Origin: Octopus sinensis
Lineage: Eukaryota
Assembly (NCBI RefSeq): GCF_006345805.1
Contig: NC_043026.1
Span: 7,440,001-7,504,000 of the forward strand
Reading direction: 5' to 3'
DNA length: 64,000 bases
The position numbers and the translations under genes were made by a program. Positions 3,765-47,303 of the stretch are shown piece by piece. Position 1 is the first letter of the stretch. Each line of letters opens with the position of its first letter. The notes under the pieces are model-generated. The model was given only the letters and a program-made list of their open reading frames with translations. It had not been told where the DNA came from and did no database searches.

Positions 3765-6265
3765 GTAACCATTAACATTAACGTTCTTTGAGTATAACTA
3801 CACTTTAGGGCCCCAGTGACTTTGCGTCTTCGTACTTTTCTTAGTTGTTTATTGTTTATTTGTTTTAATCATTGGACTACGGCCATACTGGGATCACCGC
3901 CTTGAAGGGTTTTGAATCTGGTACTCGTTTTGTCGGTCTTTTCGCCAAACTGCTACCTCACAGACGTAAATAAACCAATACCGTTTATCAAGTAGTGGGA
4001 TAAATAGAAGCGCGCGCGCACTCACTCTTATATATATATATACGATGGGGTTCTTTCAGTTTCCAATTACAAGATCCACTCACAAGGTTTTGGTCAGCTA
4101 AGGGTTACAGTGGGAGACATCCGAAGGTGTCACGCAATGGAATTGAACCCGGAATCATGTGGTTGGGAAGTAAGCGTCTTGCAACGCAGACTGCTCATGT
4201 TCCTTGATGAAATTTTGTGGGAAACATTTCCGAAGGTTTTGATGACGTTTATGTCCATGAAATGCTTTTAAAAACATTTCTGTTTTGGAGAAAATAATTA
4301 AGACGTAATTTTTTAAGAAATTGGGGAATTTATAAAATCTTGACTTGAATTACTGAAACGAAATAAAATACCTGCGTTTACTACAGGTATTGCTGTGGTT
4401 TAATTTCTGTGGACTTTTAGATATCATTACATCTAATAATTAATGCTGTTTTAATTAAATACTTTAGAGTCACCAAAATATTTCTTTTTTACTTTTCTAA
4501 TAAATTTGCTTTTTCTTTTTTCATTTCGTTTCGGTATTTCCCGGCCTCATGCATCTTGGAAATTTCGCAGTGGTCCTTCGCTAAATTTACCAAAAAACAA
4601 AAGAAATCCAGGGGAAGGTCTGTAACAGATCGCCTTCATGTGTGGGATTTTTAGAGGAATTTTGCTTTAAGTACCTTCTCATAATTTTTTTAATTCGTTT
4701 TGCATGCAACAACAGCTGCCCCACACAATCTCACAACTCTCTAATGGCATGGGCACTAAATGATTGTATGCTGGACAGTTTCGTTTCCATGCAAGCATCT
4801 CGGGAAAGTTTGGCTGTTGGCACTTTCATGCCTGAAGTGCTTGTCTCAAACATAAAAGACTCCCTCTGGAACACTGCCATGCTGAAGACACTGTATTACT
4901 TGATTCTCTACCTGATGAATTTCTTATAGGAAATACCTTTATGTTTTCTCCTGCATGTCCAATTTGGTAACTCCTATTAGGAAATGAAACACATGTAATG
5001 GTGACTATATAATACCTGAAAATTTTTCCAGTCTCCTGTTTTACTAAATTTAAATGTACAAAGGAGAAATCAGATTGACATTACACTTGTTTCGTTACTC
5101 AGACGATATCTCACACAATGCAATTGTAAATTATCAATTTGATTTTTCCTTTCCCCATTTCGATTCTTACTTTTATTATTCACTGTGTGTGTGGCTTCTT
5201 TTGAGCCTACTGGATCTTACCTTGGAGTTTATTATGCATGTTGGAATTTTGGGAAAATATCTCCGTAAGATTATTCCTTGTTCTGGTCCCTGACTCCCTT
5301 CCTGTGCTTGCAGTGCTTCATCAACCAAGAGGAACCCTTCATCTTGAAGGACGAGAACTTGTATGGCTGAAAGCTGGCTTCAGATGGTACAACACGGTGG
5401 CTTCTACTTTGAATGTTTGGCTGTTTTTGTTGTAACTAAAATACGTTACCAAAATATTACAAAACTTTTGATTCAACACAATATGAACTTAAATACATTT
5501 AGGTTATAAAATGTTCAGCTGTTCTTGGTTAATCATCCTCATCGTTTAACGTCCGCTTTCCATGCTAGCATGGGTTGGACGGTTCAACTGAAGTATGGGA
5601 AGCCCGAAGGCTGCACCAGGCTCCAGTCAGATCTGGCAGAGTTTCTACAGCTGGATGCCCTTCCTAACGCCAACCACTCTGTGAGTGTAGTGGGTGCTTT
5701 TTACGTGCCACCCGCACAGGTGCCAGGCGAGGCTGGCGAACGGCCACGCTCGGATGGTGTTTTTTATGTGCCACCGACACAGGTGCCAGATGAGGCTGGC
5801 AAACGGCCACGCTCGGATGGTGTTTTTTATATCAACAGATTCTCCGAAGAAATTCCCTGAAAAAAAATATTCTTTGTTTTTATATCTTTGCATTTCAAAT
5901 CTGTCTCCTTCATATCTTACATTATTGTTTCTTTATCTTGTTTCAGAATATTGGATGACCTTGGCATTGATTCATTCTTCATCAGATGCGTCGTCAATAT
6001 TTATCATCTTCGAAAGACTAAAAGAAAATGTGATGCAGAACGGATTTGATAATTCCGAAGAATTATGTTGAAATAAGTGGAATGACGTCAATTCTCTTCT
6101 TCAAATTTGTTTTCCTTTTTAATTAAACTTGGATGATTTCGCAAAGAATTTTACAGCATCTTCAAATATCGACAAAGATTATGGTTACTGGAAATACAGC
6201 AGTAGAAATATTTGTCAGGAATATACAATAAAACGAAAATAGGGAAAATATCCCCTTTGGATTAT

Positions 6266-7411
6266 ATGAGAAACTTAATTGGGTTTTATCCTGAAGATAT
6301 GCCAAAAGTGATTGGAAAGTCATCCTATGGTGATGTCCATGGTAAGCCGTTCTCTGGAAGTAGTGACTTAACAAAACTCAAGCGCATTCCTGCCGGAGAG
6401 AAGTCCCATCAGTGTGATATCTGTGGCAAATCATTCACTGAAAATGGTGATTTAACTAAACACAAACGTATTCATACAGGAGAGAAGCCGTTTCACTGCG
6501 ATGTGTGTGGTGTGTCTTTCTCTCAAAAAGGTAACCTCACCACTCATAAACGGATTCATACAGGGGAGAGACCCTATTGCTGTGACATCTGTGGTAAATC
6601 ATTCTCTCAGAGTGGTGAACTGACTATTCACAACCGTATTCACACAGGAGAAAAACCCTATCGTTGCGACATCTGTGGTAAATCGTTCTCTCGTAAAGGT
6701 AACCTAACCACTCATAAGCGTATTCATACAGGAGAGAAACCATATCACTGTGATATCTGTGGTAAGTCCTGCTCGGGCAGTAGCAACCTGATTACTCACA
6801 AGCGCATTCACACAGGGGAGAAGCCATATCAATGTGATGTCTGTGACAAGTCGTTCTCTCAGAGTGGTGAGTTAACAAAACACAAACGTGTTCATACAGG
6901 AGAGAAGCCATTTCATTGTGATATCTGTGGTAAATCATTCTATGGAAGCAGCGAATTAACCATACATAAGTATTTTCATGCAGAAGAGAAAATATACCAG
7001 TGTGATATCTGTGGTAAATCATTCTCAAGGGGGAGCGATTTAACAAGACACATACGAATTCACACAGGAGAGAGGCCTTACAACTGCGATATCTGTGGTA
7101 AATCATTCTCTGAAAACAGTGTCTTGACTAAACACAGACGTATTCATACGGGAGAGAACCCATACCATTGCGATATCTGTGGTAAGCCGTTCTCGCAGAG
7201 TGGTGAATTAACCAGACACATACGTGTTCATACGGGAGAGAAACCATACCACTGTGATATCTGTGGTTCATCCTTTTCTCAGAGTGGTGAACTGACAACA
7301 CACAAACGTGTCCATACAGGGGAGAAGCCATATCACTGTGATGTCTGTGGTAAATCATTCTCTCAAAAAAGTCACTTAACTACGCATGTATCTCTTCATG
7401 CAGAAATGTAA
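6266..7411 (+). CDS. C2H2 zinc-finger protein (12 intact fingers plus 1 degenerate)
   Basis: Tandem CxxC-x12-HxxxH units with TGEKP(Y/F) linkers. The first in-frame ATG is at 6266 (the ORF track starts at TTG 6212) and the stop TAA ends at 7411. A likely exon acceptor TTTCAG lies at 5941-5946. The upstream N-terminal region appears frameshifted (see findings). Confidence 0.9.
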
Positions 7412-7775: not shown

Positions 7776-8083
7776 TGTAAATTTTATCTAGTCCATGCAA
7801 GCATGGAAAGTGGAGGTTAAAACTGATGATGCTGGTGTATGTAGATGTATATATGTGTGTGTGTGTGTGTTTAAACTGATGTAATTAATAACAGCTTCGA
7901 TTAGTTCTGATTGGGTCACAGGTTTTGGTTTTGTATTTATCAATTTAATTAGATTTTGTTAAGACAATTACTAAATTTAATATAAAATGAACTAAATTTG
8001 ATCTTACAAAATCTCTTTTCTTGCATGGTTTTTAGAACACAAAAGAAAATAAAAGAAGACTTTTTTTATTTAAAAGAAATATT

Positions 8084-9930
8084 TTAATCTTTTTCATAAT
8101 TCACTTTGATTGTTACATTTGCAAAATATGACCTTGTTTTTGGTTTTAGCGTTACGAAGTATTTTCCCACTTTTGGATGTCTAATCGAAAGGAATTGGTC
8201 CGTTCCGGGCTGACTTGATCGCCATTTTGTCAAACGTTCAGAGCACCGACTTCTTTTGTAGCAAGCATAAACATCTACTTCTCCGGTTCCAGCAAAAGTA
8301 ATAACTTTCACTTTCTTTAATGATACCGTCTTCACATTGAGTTTAAACAAGATTTTCTCTCCAGGAACTGAACTCAGACCCTCAACTACTGAGTTCTCAT
8401 GAATGTTACGGATGTACATAGATATATCGCAGACTTTGATGCCTACTTTTGCAAAAGATTCTTGTACAGAAGCTGTATCATAGCCAAGATCATAAGTGGA
8501 CTTCATGATGTCACAAGCAGCCTCTGTGAAGTTGGTTTTTGGATGCCAGTAGAAACGGTTGCTGTGTGCCGTTATCTGGAATACTTTCTTAACACTCCAG
8601 TCTTTGTAATTGGCTAACAGACAGTAGAACCGGTTGAACACTCCGCTGAGGTAGTGCACATCCATATCATCGGAGATGTTTCCAGCATCTGTGATTGATT
8701 TACCATCCTCCGATTGTTTACAAAGTTTGCGTATCGAATTTTTGGTGACGCCGCCTCCAGCTTCCCAGTCGTTGCTTCCTTTTTCAAAATATTCGGCTGC
8801 CTCTCCGGCCAGGTCACTGAAGGATTCGTCGATGCCCCCCGACTGACCCTTGTACACCAGGTTTGAATGTTCTTCTGTGAAGCAGTGTGTCACTTCATGA
8901 GCAACTATGTCGAGACCGACAAGAGGCAGGAAGGTGTCATCACCATCACCAAACGTGAAGTTTCGGCCGTTGTAGTTAGCCACGGCCGTGTTGTGTCCGT
9001 AGTGCACCCGAAAGATCATAGGCAATTGTTTCTTCGGGGGCACTTTCACCCATTCCATGTACATATTGTGGATAATGGTACCGTAGAAAAGAGCATCATT
9101 TACCGGGGAATAAGCTCCATTTATTTCATCCTTTGCACCATTCTTGCAGTTGGTATGATAAGTTTTTTCATCCTCATCGGAGAGAAACTCCTTCCCATTC
9201 AGGTTCACAACAATCACGAAGCTGTTGCGGAAATAGCAATCTTCTCCCGTCCGCCTCACCTGCAAATAAGGGAGCAGTTCCCCGTATGTTTTCTTCCCTA
9301 TCAATTTGTTCCCTCCTATGCCTTTCATCTGATATTTCTCTCTCGCAGTTTCTAGTGTGTTCCATTTGTCTACAAGCCTTCCAGTCTTCGCATTGATCAT
9401 CATGCAAAATCGATAATTTTCCCCATCAGACACAGCAAAGTATTGAACTCGGTAAACCAGAATTCCGATACTGTCCTTCACATAGATCATCAACTGAGGT
9501 TTGTCGCTGTCTATGCGGGCCCCTTCCATAGGGAATTTGCCATACATCAGAGCTAATTGCACAGCTTCCTGTTCAGTGACATTTGGTATTGTAGAGTTGA
9601 TGTCATCATCAAGGTTTTGAACTAGTTTACCTGTCACCTGGCCAGTGTACACATGGGTTTTGGCATCTGTCTCCACGGTGAGGGTGGCATCAAACACGGG
9701 AAGCCCTCTGTAGGTCTCGTGGTACTTTTTGATGTCTGTTCCTTGTACGCTTGGTGCTGAATCTGTTAATTCGACATCCTCGTCTTTGGTTAGACCAAAC
9801 AGGTCACGTGTGGTGATCATGTGACTCGGCTGTCGCTTCACCATCTCACTCAGCGTCTCCACGTTGGACAGGAACACGTCCCGAGCCTGTCGCCATTTCG
9901 CTGACGTCACACAATGGCTCCCCAGGAACG
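8084..9930 (-). CDS. M4 family (thermolysin/vibriolysin/pseudolysin-like) zinc metalloprotease, exon 2 of 2 (FTP + PepSY propeptide, catalytic domain, C-terminal PPC domain)
   Basis: Uninterrupted ORF with HEVTH (HExxH, 8885-8899), GQSGGIDESFSDLAGEAAE (third Zn ligand), DVHYLSGVFNR, INGAYSPVNDA and GGNKLIGK. Propeptide motifs are YHETYRGLPVF and INAKTGRLVDKW, and the tail is PPC-like (GLSSVPGE...GTGEVDVY...PKVGKYFV). A (CT)n polypyrimidine tract plus AG acceptor lies at 9932-9931 (phase 1). Stop TAA is at 8086-8084. Confidence 0.93.
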
Positions 9931-9979
9931 CTAGAGAGAGAGAGAGAAAGAGGAAGATAATAATGGTTTCAAATTTTGC

Positions 9980-10720
9980 CACAAGGGCAGCAACTTTAGG
10001 GGAGGGGGCGAGTCAGTTACATAGACCCCAGTCTTTAACTGATACTTATTCTATCGACCCCGAAAGCATAAAAGGTAAAGTCGACCATGGCGGAATTTGA
10101 ACTCAGAACATAACAGCAGACAAAATACCTATTTCTTTACTACCCACAAGGGGCTAAACACAGAGAGGACAAACAAGGACAGACAAAGGGATTAAGTCGA
10201 TTACATCGACCTCAGTGCGTAACTGGTACTTAATTTATCGACCCCGAAAGGATGAAAGGTAAAGTCAACCTTGGCGGAATTTGAACTCAGAACATAACGG
10301 CAGACAAAATACCTATTTCTTTACTACCCACAAGGGGACAAACACGAGGACAGACAAATGCATTAAGTCGATTACATCGACCCCAGTGTGTAACTGGTAC
10401 TTAATTTATCGACTCTGAAAGGATGAAAGGCAAAGTCAACCTCGGCGGAATTTGAACTCAGAATGTAGCGGCAGACGAAATACCTATTTCTTTACTACCC
10501 ACAAGGGGCTAAATACAGAGAGGACAAACATGGACAGACATAGGTATTAAGTCGATTACATCGACCTCCCCAGTGCGTAACTGGTACTTAATTTATCGAC
10601 CACGAAAGGATGAAAGGCAAAGTCGACCTCGGCGGAATTTGAACTCAGAACGTAACGGCAGACGAAATATCGATCAGAATTTCGCCCGGTGCAATAGCGT
10701 TTCTGCCAGCTTGCTGTCTT
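9980..10720 (-). mobile_element. SINE family B with about 4 tandem ~180-bp units (in M4 intron)
   Basis: Repeated GACCCCGAAAGGATGAAAGGCAAAGTCGACCTCGGCGGAATTTGAACTCAGAAC units. Other copies at about 2455-2580, 21510-21900, 30870-31280, 43800-44340, 52020-52250, 56590-56810 and 59770-60180. Confidence 0.75.
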
Positions 10721-10952
10721 TGATGGGCGAAATACTGTTAAGTATTTTGTCCATTGCACTAATGATTCTGTCAGCTCATCGCCTTAAAGAAGAAAAAAAT
10801 AATAATAATATTTGAAGAGAATATTATGAGAAAAAGATCTTTAACCCTTCGGCAGCAGCAGTTTTCTGTCGAAAGGAATGGTTTTTTTATTCACAAGTCT
10901 TTTATTAATCATGCATTATCTTGTGGCTTTGAGGTTTTGATGGACGTAACTC

Positions 10953-11346
10953 TCTTTTACTTGTTTCAGTCATGTGACTGTGGCCATGCTGGAGCACTGC
11001 CTTTAGTCGAAGAAATCGACCCCAGGACTTATTCTTTGTAAGCCTATTACTTATTCTATCGGTCTCTTTTGCCAAACTGCTAAGTTACGGGAACGTAAAC
11101 ACACCAGCGTCAGCTGTCAAGTGATAATGGGGAGACAAACACAGATACACAAACATATTCACACACACACACACATATATATATATATACATACATACAT
11201 ATATATGGCAGGCTTCTTTTAGTTTCCATCTACCAAATCCACTCACAAGGCTATAGTAGAAGACACTTGCCCAAGGTGTCACACAGTTGGACTGAACCCA
11301 GAACCAAGTGGTTGGTAAGCAAGCCACTTACCACACAGCCACTCCT
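10953..11346 (-). mobile_element. SINE family A copy (in M4 intron)
   Basis: Reverse complement of the same consensus with an internal deletion. Confidence 0.7.
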
Positions 11347-11782
11347 AATAATAATAACAACAATAATAATAATATCAATACTAATATTATTACTATTACT
11401 AAGGTATGTGCTAATTCTCTTATTACCACAATCATCATAATTATTAATTAGAATTTATGTGATAAAATGCTGAAGAGAGAGAAAAGGGGTGGGTGTGAGG
11501 AGAGGTGAAGGGCTTTAGTTATCTTTTGATATGGGAAAAGACATTATCCAGTTATTATCATTATTATAACTTGTTGCTCTTATTATCATCATTATTATTA
11601 TTATTATTATTATTAATGTTATGGCAGTGAGCTGGCAGAATCGTTAGCACATCAGGCATAAAGCTTTGCAGTATTTTGCCTGTCACTAGGTTCTGAGTTC
11701 AAATTCCACTGAGGGTGACTTTGCCTTTCGTCCTTATTATTATTATTATATTATTATTATTATATTATTATTATTATCATTG

Positions 11783-12030
11783 TGGAGGCATGTGGTTTAG
11801 TGGTTAGGGTGCCAGCACCATGATTGTAAGATTGTGGTTTCGATTCCTGGACCGGGCGACGTGCTGTGTTCTTGAGCAAAACACTTCATTTCACATTGCT
11901 CCAGTCCACTCAGCTGGCAAAAATGAGTAACACTGCGATGGACTGTCGTCCCGTCCAGATGGAGAACACATAGACCATTGAAACTGGGAAACCAGGCCCA
12001 TGAGCCTGGCTAGGCTTTAAAAGGGCGTAT
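11783..12030 (+). mobile_element. tRNA-derived SINE family C
   Basis: GGAGGCATGTGGTTTAGTGGTTAGG...GGTTTCGATTCC boxes; an inverted copy at about 51640-51880 and degenerate tandem copies at about 47304-48010. Confidence 0.7.
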
Positions 12031-12040
12031 TTATTTATTA

Positions 12041-12076
<36 letters not shown>

Positions 12077-12189
12077 CATCTTCATTATCCTCGTTAATTA
12101 AACTACTATTAACTGAACTAATTCTCCCTACTATTAAAACAGTTGTTACAGAGTTATTATAGCCACGACTGCTTTGATAAGAATTACGT

Positions 12190-12370
12190 GTGTTGTTATG
12201 ACCGAATTTATATTCGTTTGAAGTGACAATGGCAGGACCTTTATTAGGTGTGGTAGAATAAAAGAGTTTTGTCGTAAACAAGTTAAACATCTGGTGATAT
12301 TTATGCTGTGGAGGGAACTTTGCTTTAATAATGCCAAAGAATTGTTCCAGCAATCCCTTAACATTTAAGC
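12190..12370 (-). mobile_element. Penelope-like element remnant
   Basis: FFGIIKAKFPPQHKYHQMFNLFTTKLFYSTTPN resembles the PLE post-RT linker. Confidence 0.5.
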
Positions 12371-14109
12371 AGAAATGTGATGTACCCCAGAAAAATATGA
12401 CTTCCCCCCACCTCTCTTACCTGGAGTATAGGGGACAAAGGAGCATTTGTAGTAAATGATGGACATAGTTGACATCAGGATCCAGGATCATCATTCTGGT
12501 AAGATCCTGTGGGGTCAGGTCTAAACTGAAGGACAGCATGAGTACAGCACCCCAGGGGTGGTATACAGCTTGGACTGGTCTATCATAGCTTGCTTCCTAA
12601 CCACATGGTTCTGGGTTCAATCCCACTGCATGGCGCCTTTGTCAAGTGTCTTTTACTATAGCCTCGGGCCAACCAAAGCCTTATGAGGGGATTTGTTAGA
12701 TGGAAACTGAAAGAAGCCTGTTGTGTATATATATGTATATATTTATGTGTTTGTCTCCCCCAACATCACTTGAAATCTGGTGTTCATTCATTCCATTTCA
12801 ATATTCTTCCAAAACCGTATTCCTTACACAGTCTACAGTCAACAAACTTAGCCACATTATCATGCCCCCTTCTATTGTGGTTTTGGGCCAGTTTGCTAGA
12901 TTCACTCTCACCATATGAGATTGTTCCATTTTCGCTGCAAAGGGGTGATTCACTGCTCTTATCTATGCAGAACTTGGTACAATTAGTTCTCAGAGCTTGT
13001 TCCTGGATGCTACAAATCAGGGCATCAGGGCATCCTTTCAGACCATTTAGCCACGTCCAGGTGTTGGTCTTATTTTCCCCTTCAATTTCTCTGACCCCAA
13101 ATCACTAGACTGTGAGAGCAACACCTCCACCATTAGGTCACGGGTCTTTGGATATTGAAAGCTATAAGGGTTTTTATAATCACCAGTAGAAGATCAATAT
13201 CTAAAGATGTGAGGTGTGCAACTTTTCCTCATTAAGAAAAATGCTTTGTTCAATAAGACAGAAGAGGCAGAAATGCAATAATTGTGGGTTTCAAATTTTG
13301 GCACAAGACCAGCAATTTCTGTGGCGGGAGATAAATCAATTACATCAACCCCAGAACAGCTGGTTCATATTTTGTTTAAAGGTGGGTACTGTTAATCAAA
13401 ATGTTAACTTTGTTAACCGTTAATCTGTTAACCAAAAAGTAAACTTTGATAAACATCAATTTGTTAATTCTTTAAAAATGTAAGAGAAGTTATCGATAAA
13501 CCGTTAATGTTTATTTTAATTATAGAAACCCTCCCCCCCAAACCAGTTTTTGCTCTAGAATCACCTAAAAACACCTTTAAAAAGGGCCAAAACTATAAAA
13601 TCCTTTAACTTCAATTCAAATGAAGTTAACTCAAGTAGATTTGTGTTAATGGAATTTAATTAGTCCAATAATGATTTCCAATGTTAACTTAAAATTGAAA
13701 TTGTTAACAAAAATGTTAACTTCATTAATTAGGGGTTTGGCACCCAGGTTTGATTTTATTGACCCCGAAGGGGATGAAAGGAAAAGTCGACTTTGGGGGA
13801 TTTTGAACTCAGAATGTAAAGAGAGCTGAAATACCACTTAGCATTTTTACAGGGGCACAGTAATGAATCTGCCAGCTAACGACAGCCTTGGAATAATTAC
13901 TAATAACGAATTCTAATAGGAGCTGGGTTTATTATGGAGAAACTCAACTAAATAACCTTTCAAGTATTAGACCGGAGACTGACACACACACACACTCTCT
14001 CTCTCTCTCTCTTTCTCTCTCAATGTTTTGCTTTGTTAAATTCTATCAGATCAGAATATACATGTGTCACATAAAACAATCCACTTTACTTTTTCTTTCA
14101 CTTTTCATT

Positions 14110-14328
14110 CTCTGTCTGTCTACCCGTCTGTCTGTCTGTCTGTTTTTATTCATCCATCCATCTATTTATTTATCTCTCTCTCTCTCTCTCTCTCTCCACC
14201 TCTGTCTGTCTGTCCATCCATCTCTGTCCATCACTCTATCTATCTATATCTATCTGTCTGTCTGTCTATCTATCTATCTTTCTATCTGTCTATCTGTCTA
14301 TCTATCTCTCTGTCTGTCTGTCTATCTA

Positions 14329-14367
<39 letters not shown>

Positions 14368-14371
14368 TCTA

Positions 14372-14407
<36 letters not shown>

Positions 14408-14411
14408 TCTA

Positions 14412-14455
<44 letters not shown>

Positions 14456-14531
14456 TCTATATGTCTGTCTGTCTGTCTCTCTGTCTGTCTGTCCATCCAT
14501 CTCTGTCCATCACTCTATCTATCTATATATA

Positions 14532-14599
<68 letters not shown>

Positions 14600-14690
14600 C
14601 TATCTATCTATCTGTCTATCTATCTCTCTATCTATCTATCTATCTGTCTGTCTGTCTATCTATCTATCTGTCTGTCTGTCTGTCTGTCTA

Positions 14691-14733
<43 letters not shown>

Positions 14734-14754
14734 GTCTGTCTGTCTGTCTATCTG

Positions 14755-14789
<35 letters not shown>

Positions 14790-14834
14790 GTCTGTCTGTC
14801 TGTCTGTCTATCTGTCTATCTATCTATCTATCTA

Positions 14835-14900
<66 letters not shown>
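14110..14900. repeat. (TCTA/TCTG)n tetranucleotide array
   Basis: Direct reading; source of the spurious 300-aa ORFs. Confidence 0.95.
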
Positions 14901-15326
14901 CCTGACTGCTCGTCTGTCTGCCTGTCTAATTTTCTCTCTATCTCCTTTTGTCTGTATATATGTGAGACAGCTATTTAAATTTAAAAAGAAATATTTCTAA
15001 ATATCTATTATATTATTATCTAATATATAAATATGAAAATTGTCTAATTAACATTTTTAAATATATCATTATACATATTTATCATATATATATATATATA
15101 TACATATATATACATATATATACACATATATATATACATATATATATGATAATATATATTTGAATGTATGTTATACATAAGGAAAAAATTATAAGCTTTT
15201 GTATTAATTTCCCCCTTAATTGGTTTTGCAAGCTGGCAACTTGATGAATATACATACATATGATTGATTGATTGATTGATTCTAGTTTCAGCTCATGAGC
15301 TGTGGCCATGCTGGGGCACCGCCATT

Positions 15327-15358
<32 letters not shown>

Positions 15359-15501
15359 AATATGAGGGAATCTAATTCCAAACTTACAGGGAATTTTGCA
15401 CTTTACTTTATCATCGTTATATGTTTTATCTTATATTTAATCTTTCTATAAGATGTAATTTTTCATTATTGAATTGATAAAAGGTGTTTTTTTTTCTAAT
15501 T

Positions 15502-15572
<71 letters not shown>

Positions 15573-16011
15573 ATATATTATATCTATAATACACACATAT
15601 TTATATAAATACAGAGTGAGAGAGAGAGAGAGGCACACATATGCACATCCACATCCACATGGCTATAAATATACCCATGACTTTCAGAAACATATTTTTA
15701 CAGTTTCAGAATCGATGAAGCATGGACTCAACTGCCTGCATCAGTTGTTCGCTGTCAGGAAACGAACATCCTTCAGGTCTTCCATACTTCCTGAAATTTT
15801 GCTAACATTTTTTTCTTTTAGTCTTTTATCTGTTTCAGTCATTTGACTGTGGCCATGCTGGAGCACTGCCTTTAGTCGAGCAAATCGACTCCCAGGACTT
15901 ATTCTTTGTGAGCCTAGTACTTATTCTATCAGTCTCTTTTGTAGAACCGCTAAGTTACAGGGATGTAAACACACCAGCATCGGTTGTCAAGCGATGATGG
16001 ACACACACACT

Positions 16012-16074
<63 letters not shown>

Positions 16075-16142
16075 ACACACACACACAGATGCATGTACAT
16101 ACAGACACACACTTACACCAAGAAATTGTACGTTTAACTCAC

Positions 16143-16191
16143 CAAGTATTACGAGAAACAGGAGCAGGACCCCAACTCTACAGGTAGCCAT
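16143..16191 (-). CDS. M4 protease exon 1 (signal peptide MATCRVGVLLLFLVIL)
   Basis: ATG at 16191 followed by 16 codons plus 1 nt, then a consensus donor G|GTGAGT. Phase 1 matches the acceptor at 9931. The join gives MATCRVGVLLLFLVILAFLGSHCVTSA-KWRQ and a 631-aa preproprotein. Confidence 0.8.
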
Positions 16192-16473
16192 CGTCTCTCT
16201 GTGTCACAGTGGTCAGTCAGAATTGGACGATAGCCAGAATTGGTCAAGCAGAGTCACAGCAAGGATGGAACAGTGGACTTTGAGCCAGGGGACAGAGGCA
16301 AATGTTTAAAACAGCCGACTTTCCAGGTGTAGGGCCTTATACGCGGTTGACGGTTGCGCCACACAGAGAGGGCCTTCAGTCTGATGCGGACAGAGTGAGT
16401 GGACACTGTTGCTATGAGAGAGAGAGAGTGGATGCTCACGCTCGGGTTGTGGAACACTCGTTCAAAATGGGGG

Positions 16474-16556
16474 TATTATATAAGTGAGGGGGGGGAGCTT
16501 TATGGGGGGTGGGGGTGGAAATGAAAACAGGCCGAGACAATCTTTTGTCTGATTGG
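16474..16556 (-). promoter_or_regulatory. Putative Pol II promoter of the M4 protease gene (TATA, CACCC boxes, CCAAT)
   Basis: On the minus strand: TATATAA at 16482-16476, CCACCCCCACCCCCC at about 16518-16504 and CCAAT at 16556-16552. Order and spacing are canonical, about 290 nt upstream of the ATG. Confidence 0.5.
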
Positions 16557-47203: not shown

Positions 47204-47303
47204 NNNNNNNNNNNNNNNNNNNNNNNNNNNNNNNNNNNNNNNNNNNNNNNNNNNNNNNNNNNNNNNNNNNNNNNNNNNNNNNNNNNNNNNNNNNNNNNNN
47301 NNN
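47204..47303. other. Assembly gap (100 N)
   Basis: Run of N. Confidence 1.

Follow-up and report, generated by a model that had tools for sequence, protein, structure and literature searches.

A conserved vibriolysin-type M4 protease gene of Octopus sinensis with relatives across molluscs and a probable bacterial origin

A protease gene of bacterial appearance in an animal assembly raises the question of whether it is contamination, a recent acquisition or an old resident of the host genome. We addressed this question for a 64,000-nucleotide stretch of the Octopus sinensis genome (GCF_006345805.1, contig NC_043026.1, forward-strand positions 7,440,001 to 7,504,000), hereafter the window, in which position 1 is the first letter. 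Its minus strand carries a two-exon gene for a 631-amino-acid (aa) preproprotein of peptidase family M4, which an initial annotation, made from the letters alone, had interpreted as a candidate domesticated gene resulting from an old bacterium-to-mollusc transfer. Our data indicated that this gene is quite probably a conserved vibriolysin-type host protease derived from a likely single transfer no later than the origin of molluscs. Its status as a host gene was confirmed by splicing and selection, and a transfer remains the most likely source; as a discovery, however, the claim does not stand, since the transfer in octopus had already been published (PMC6011040).

The coding sequence of 1896 nt was assembled from positions 16191-16143 and 9930-8084. 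Exon 1 (16143..16444 in RNA-type contigs) comprises the 5′ untranslated region, the ATG at 16191, 16 signal-peptide codons and one further nucleotide, with 49 coding nt (16143-16191) ending at a G|GTGAGT donor. A single phase-1 GT-AG intron of 6212 nt (9931..16142), defined by the contig splice and containing host repeats, interrupts codon 17. Exon 2 (8084..9930) opens after a TAG acceptor in phase 1 and encodes the end of the signal peptide, the propeptide, the catalytic domain, a PPC-fold domain and the stop codon without any intron, in agreement with the earlier description of the bacterial-like portion as intronless. The open frame that harbours the protease extends over 8084-10012, whereas the true start lies in the separate 49-nt exon. 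The predicted product is 100% identical to P0001/XP_029653636.1, listed at its source as elastase from Octopus sinensis. On the same strand, a TATA-like box (16476..16482) about 32 nt upstream of the 5′ end of the X1 contig may belong to the promoter, and an AATAAA (8065..8070) is a candidate poly(A) signal, the X1 contig ending at 8074; the transcription start site could not be fixed from the contigs.

Four of the 24 listed sequencing runs were examined, namely three of RNA type (X1, X5 and X11, from three studies) and X15. In all three RNA-type runs, the loose end at 16143 read straight into exon 2, and one contig per run (2161, 2038 and 2130 nt) spanned exon 2 together with exon 1, covering 16143-16444 in X1, 16143-16357 in X5 and 16143-16468 in X11. 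This exact splice in contigs of three studies argues against contamination. Run X15, which may be the source sample, gave an unspliced contig (7880-9985) that extends into both flanks of exon 2, which speaks against a chimeric assembly; no X15 contig was found on exon 1, which is not proof of its absence. Comparison with the X11 contig revealed 20 synonymous and 3 non-synonymous differences (ratio of non-synonymous to synonymous polymorphism, pN/pS, 0.045; p 1e-10), and the corresponding substitution-rate ratio (dN/dS) to the two closest intact paralogues was 0.18 and 0.23, the selection test suggested at the outset thus pointing to purifying selection. Collectively, our findings demonstrated that the protease gene is physically integrated, spliced and under purifying selection, and that it is a real octopus host gene is practically certain.

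The intact preproprotein carries the catalytic motifs that had been recognized initially, namely HEVTH at residues 361-365 (8885..8899, minus strand; H361, E362 and H365 of the zinc motif), GGIDE at 381-385 with the third ligand E385 (8825-8827) and DVH at 440-442 with H442 (8654-8656), as well as NGAYSP at 287-292. Residues H361, E362, H365, E385, Y376, R417 and H442 were invariant in 140/140 aligned rows. The Pfam models Peptidase_M4 (65 bits against a cut-off of 22.4; 1e-17) and M4_C (88.1 against 24.4; 8e-25) both passed, while FTP (19.6 against 21 bits) and PepSY (16.3 against 24) fell under their cut-offs and no PPC domain was detected by Pfam in the 631-aa protein. The minus-strand segment 9338..9898 encodes the FTP-/PepSY-like propeptide (about residues 28-214, with predicted boundaries), which matched the MCP-02 propeptide 3nqy_A with E 2.5e-8 by sequence and 5e-11 by fold in Foldseek; by this match, it is a vibriolysin-type propeptide of FTP and PepSY composition. 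It is followed by the M4 catalytic domain (about residues 215-517; 8429..9337), delimited by Pfam, sequence and model fold, and by a C-terminal beta-sandwich with a predicted PPC fold (about residues 528-630; 8090..8398), for which the AlphaFold model and Foldseek pointed to 5sv5, 2o8o and 1nqd. The match to the PPC structure 5sv5 (template modeling score, TM(target), 0.71; E 2e-4, among PPC/collagen-binding folds) was assigned to this tail. Of the proposed signal-FTP-PepSY-M4-PPC layout, the M4 part was therefore borne out by Pfam, and the FTP and PepSY parts by the MCP-02 match, while the predicted fold suggests the PPC part. The AlphaFold model, built from the 140-row alignment, had a mean predicted local distance difference test score (pLDDT) of 89.9 with a flexible linker at 208-215, and it superposed on vibriolysin MCP-02 with a root mean square deviation (rmsd) of 1.3 A in Foldseek. 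The closest solved structures by sequence were LasB pro-elastase (E 4e-84), PlM4P and MCP-02, and six N-glycosylation sequons occur in the predicted protein. By its domains and catalytic residues, the protein is a member of family M4, and it is likely to be an active protease.

The gene has several relatives within its own genome. Of 13 candidates from a protein search of the octopus genome, 12 matched, and these fall on 10 loci on five chromosome-size contigs (two on C30, five on C11 and one each on C27, C10 and C3), and a Pfam search placed 9 of the 10 loci above the cut-off. Besides a broken copy on C10, subfamily A includes two paralogues about 65% identical to the studied gene, whereas the remaining six, 34-37% identical to it, form subfamily B. 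A first exon with a phase-1 donor was found for 6/8 paralogues (five with 16 codons plus one base, one shorter), while for the other two none was found within the 9.9 kb read beside each; the phase-1 intron is common to paralogues of both subfamilies and therefore likely predates the A/B split. The mature part was intronless in all copies read. The C10 copy (C10:4189886-4190695) is split across frames with an internal stop and is probably a pseudogene or an assembly error; it adjoins an open frame that we take to be LINE-like (long interspersed element). On C11, four subfamily-B copies (L006-L009) form a tandem array at 71.40-71.49 Mb. Three C11 copies that were compared gave synonymous divergence (dS) of 0.05-0.19 and dN/dS of 0.49-0.91, and two, L005 (31.4 Mb) and L009, have shortened open frames. 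Between the studied gene and its subfamily-A paralogues L002 and L003, dS was 0.79-0.85 in the propeptide (9338-9898) against 1.2-1.8 in the catalytic domain, and the lower propeptide value may stem from gene conversion long ago. A second X11 contig over 9801-9910 (depth 304, 11 differences, other first-exon letters, same acceptor region) is probably the transcript of a more abundant subfamily-A paralogue. For the two copies on C30, the O. vulgaris counterparts (P0121 and P0007) lie on a contig of equal length (29,193,250), which suggests that their linkage is conserved at chromosome level.

Relatives were found throughout the molluscs, including cephalopods (O. vulgaris, O. bimaculoides, Argonauta and Sepia pharaonis), 11 bivalve genera (Tegillarca, Potamilus, Sinanodonta, Ylistrum, Solemya, Pecten, Mactra, Mercenaria, Mya, Ruditapes and Pinctada), five gastropod genera (Pomacea, Haliotis, Batillaria, Littorina and Nucella), Physella and the chiton Liolophura. 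A mixture-model tree of 54 rows, built after removal of the row L104 together with 18 redundant animal, 20 bacterial and one outgroup row, placed the 21 animal-type rows in one clade with a Shimodaira-Hasegawa-like approximate likelihood ratio test (SH-aLRT) value of 100. It divided them into A, with cephalopods and Ylistrum, and B, made up of groups of gastropods, cephalopods and bivalves. Subfamily B also includes a sequence clustered with the chiton protein. When 142 representatives were added, 22 fell inside the mollusc clade and 18 beside it, giving a 61-row clade with support of 100. The additions included a third mollusc subfamily with Haliotis and Physella members (P0249, P0256, P0300 and P0375), in several of which a long Thr/Ser-rich linker separates the propeptide from the catalytic domain. 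In a 55-row mixture tree, 12 mollusc and 10 extra rows grouped at 98 and the mollusc rows alone at SH-aLRT 93. Of the 18 extra sequences, 14 were looked up; contigs of 0.2-7 Mb carry many of them, and one came from the transcriptome of Siedleckia nematoides. Siedleckia is a gut parasite of a polychaete, so this sequence may stem from the annelid host. No other non-mollusc eukaryote label appeared among the named matches of three homologue searches, each listed to its best 120 rows, and of three cluster look-ups. A profile search gave no eukaryote-labelled sequence among the best 120 of 2137 matches, and for P0001 and P0258 the ESM Atlas yielded bacterial clusters only, which says nothing on absence elsewhere. 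A complete signal peptide is often missing at the N-termini of the extra members (P0258, P0261, P0263, P0274, P0299 and others), as would follow from an overlooked first exon, and several lie on contigs of equal length, which suggests tandem copies. The 18 further sequences that join the mollusc clade imply that the family may predate molluscs; a single origin at or before crown Mollusca is highly likely.

The studied copy differs from most relatives at an edge strand (8972..8983, minus strand), where alignment with LasB and column counts placed V333 at the Asn112 position and Y336 at the Trp115 position. The Asn112 equivalent is Asn in 80/80 bacterial and 39/45 subfamily-B rows and in 4/15 subfamily-A rows, the studied gene having Val, and the Trp115 equivalent is Tyr or Phe in 15/15 subfamily-A rows and Trp in all 125 others. 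According to a report on thermolysin simulations, Asn112 binds the P1′ backbone NH (PMC12316308). Given this role, the Val and Tyr replacements may alter specificity or rate. V333 and Y336 mark a variant pocket, not a separate family, and the changed edge strand lends itself to a natural experiment on a residue considered essential for catalysis of the thermolysin type.

How the family came to be in molluscs was weighed on trees and topology tests. Outside animals, the closest relatives were vibriolysin-type enzymes from Pseudomonadota (31-39% identity), and free trees nested the animal clade among bacteria with weak backbone support. Bacterial origin by transfer is very probable, as it best accounts for the patchy distribution among eukaryotes and for the bacterial layout without introns. 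Several observations weigh against the overall interpretation. When all 29 vibriolysin-type bacterial rows were held together without the animals, the approximately unbiased (AU) test gave p-AU 0.83 under LG+G4 and 0.79 under the mixture model, and with either model the constrained tree outscored the quick free tree in likelihood. The expected nesting among gammaproteobacterial proteases was accordingly not upheld, a sister position fitting as well or better. The trees were quick or FastTree runs with SH-like support only, and in a 94-row tree the long row L104, later dropped, fell inside the animal clade. The RNA label of X1, X5 and X11 is a software guess and not a recorded property, although the missing 6.2-kb intron in their contigs speaks for transcripts. 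As regards function, Val at the Asn112-equivalent position could, judging from the alignment, lower activity, and hepatopancreas is the only tissue in which the orthologue was tested (PMC6011040). L104 itself (NZ_CP046164.1) is a short, highly diverged M4 sequence with a 453-aa frame on a Vibrio plasmid and a long branch. The sister of the animal clade varied by tree (L081, P0054, P0264/P0349 or no clear sister), so that no donor is named.

The sister position leaves room for an ancient lineage beside the bacterial vibriolysins that an early animal or eukaryote already possessed and passed on vertically, with loss from most descendants. A tree with the animals as sister of every sampled vibriolysin-type bacterium is not rejected by the AU test, and the 18 non-mollusc-like sequences that join the mollusc clade would suit such a history. 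We nevertheless consider it improbable, since the Siedleckia transcriptome is the sole non-mollusc eukaryote label among the named sequences in the best 120 matches per search, the copies read have no introns in the mature part, and long animal branches are expected to drift toward a distant outgroup. A transfer from Vibrio or Pseudomonas that was recent or confined to cephalopods, to which the gammaproteobacterial best non-animal matches and the intronless mature region might point, is very improbable: identity to bacteria is just 32-39%, the scallop Ylistrum belongs to subfamily A and gastropods, bivalves and the chiton-clustered sequence to B, and the AU test rejected a grouping of subfamily A with Vibrio/Shewanella (p 0.0004; the sole alternative tested). 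The bivalve member of subfamily A refutes it, unless that placement is an artefact. The bacterial look of the sequence could also point to contamination or a chimeric assembly, whose probability is negligible, as refuted by a spliceosomal intron removed in transcripts, orthologues in other octopus species, paralogues on five chromosome-size contigs and the unspliced contig linking exon 2 to host flanks. We thus favour a transfer at or before the origin of molluscs. A more specific version, which we hold tentatively and somewhat short of an even chance, places one transfer in the Ediacaran to early Cambrian into a spiralian ancestor (molluscs, annelids and perhaps more), in which the vibriolysin acquired one signal-peptide intron and expanded into a hitherto unrecognised protease family of animals with at least three mollusc subfamilies, A having rebuilt, toward a new specificity, the substrate-binding edge strand that shows no variation in the bacterial enzymes examined. 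Under the transfer scenario, a signal-peptide intron would then have been gained (or a host first exon captured), with the A/B duplication preceding the cephalopod-bivalve split and lineage expansions coming afterwards.

Established knowledge of M4 enzymes suggests how the protein might work. The signal peptide would direct it into the endoplasmic reticulum, with cleavage predicted after Ala27; the propeptide would first aid folding and then inhibit, until self-cleavage close to the flexible linker 208-215. H361, H365 and E385 would hold zinc with E362 as the base, the P1′ preference being for cuts before hydrophobic residues, and the PPC-fold domain may bind insoluble protein substrate. A mainly digestive role is possible; amplification of the orthologue from hepatopancreas cDNA, the sole tissue evidence, makes digestion the best guess, and the venom, mucus-remodelling and hatching roles that had been raised found no support. 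The same origin could also have led to a low-activity or re-specialised, non-digestive copy (mucus, egg, salivary or defence). V333, the variable Asn112 position in subfamily A, Tyr or Phe at 336 in 15/15 rows and the P1′ contact of Asn112 in the thermolysin simulations (PMC12316308) are in line with it, whereas every zinc and catalytic residue is kept, selection is strong, and term searches of a salivary-gland proteome and a skin-mucus supplement yielded no M4 entry (weak negatives), so that we regard it as unlikely. The term search covered the available parts of the supplements of PMC10138644, PMC12607849 and PMC7693380, without an M4 entry (a weak negative), and the accessible text of PMC12607849 and PMC12032550 contained no M4 mention under the terms tried.

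The flanks of the gene are those of a host locus, as originally annotated. A C2H2 zinc-finger open frame (6206..7411, plus strand; open frame and Pfam) lies tail to tail with the protease, and OGFOD1-type exons occur near 32.8 kb of the window, under the cut-off, and at 34.6 kb. Within the intron, a repeat scan located a 171-bp unit resembling a short interspersed element (SINE) in 2.9 tandem copies (10159..10669) and a TCTA/TCTG/TC microsatellite block (14173..14898). A SINE-like 17-mer has 18 matches across the window (2388-60107), six of them inside the intron against 0 expected by chance; it is often paired 130-190 bp apart, with four in tandem at 10092-10650. The reported intronic microsatellites were thus confirmed, and the 171-bp unit and 17-mer are SINE-like, "SINE" being our own label for the element. 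Very high summed depth was seen at 9918-10050 in run X15. The sole N gap in the window is at 47204-47303.

Prior work on O. bimaculoides described 12 transferred genes, including seven Zn-metalloproteinases, ZnMP1-7 (Liu et al. 2018, PMC6011040). ZnMP2 (XP_014774680.1; P0122 in our set, ZnMP7 being P0004) is presented there as a gene acquired from bacteria, and it was amplified from cDNA of the hepatopancreas (PMC6011040). Like the studied protein, it has 631 aa; it is 90% identical, the orthologue, and sister at SH-aLRT 99. That text screens against vertebrates, fungi, plants and protozoa in a different octopus species, and it was the only one on the family found in our literature search, subscription papers lying outside its coverage. 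Our work is therefore a confirmation of the octopus transfer claim; the text of PMC6011040 contains neither the pan-molluscan range, the two subfamilies and the shared intron nor the edge-strand change, and 10 copies, two subfamilies, a shared signal-peptide intron and one pan-mollusc clade go beyond it. If one transfer predates molluscs, it would be a very old retained bacterium-to-animal enzyme transfer. The family sits in databases as "elastase-like" or "neutral protease-like", and where mollusc tissue yields vibriolysin-like reads or peptides, caution is due, as they may come from the host itself rather than from a pathogen.

Among characterized M4 enzymes, the thermolysin/bacillolysin branch resembles the octopus protein in catalytic fold and motif, but its identity is 21-24% with an rmsd of about 3 A, and it falls outside the clade in all rooted trees. 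The vibriolysin/pseudolysin branch (MCP-02 3nqx, PlM4P 7ecc, LasB 1ezm and ProA 6ya1) has the same signal-propeptide-catalytic layout and shares HExxH with its Glu, Y376, R417, H442 and both cysteine pairs of the LasB catalytic domain, at rmsd 1.1-2.3 A and 37-43% identity, and the PPC-fold tail predicted here is like that of MCP-02-type enzymes. Unlike this branch, the octopus gene is a eukaryotic one with two exons, and its protein has six sequons, the replacements Asn112 to Val and Trp115 to Tyr, the extra cysteines C366, C573 and C579 and a predicted PPC domain too diverged for Pfam.

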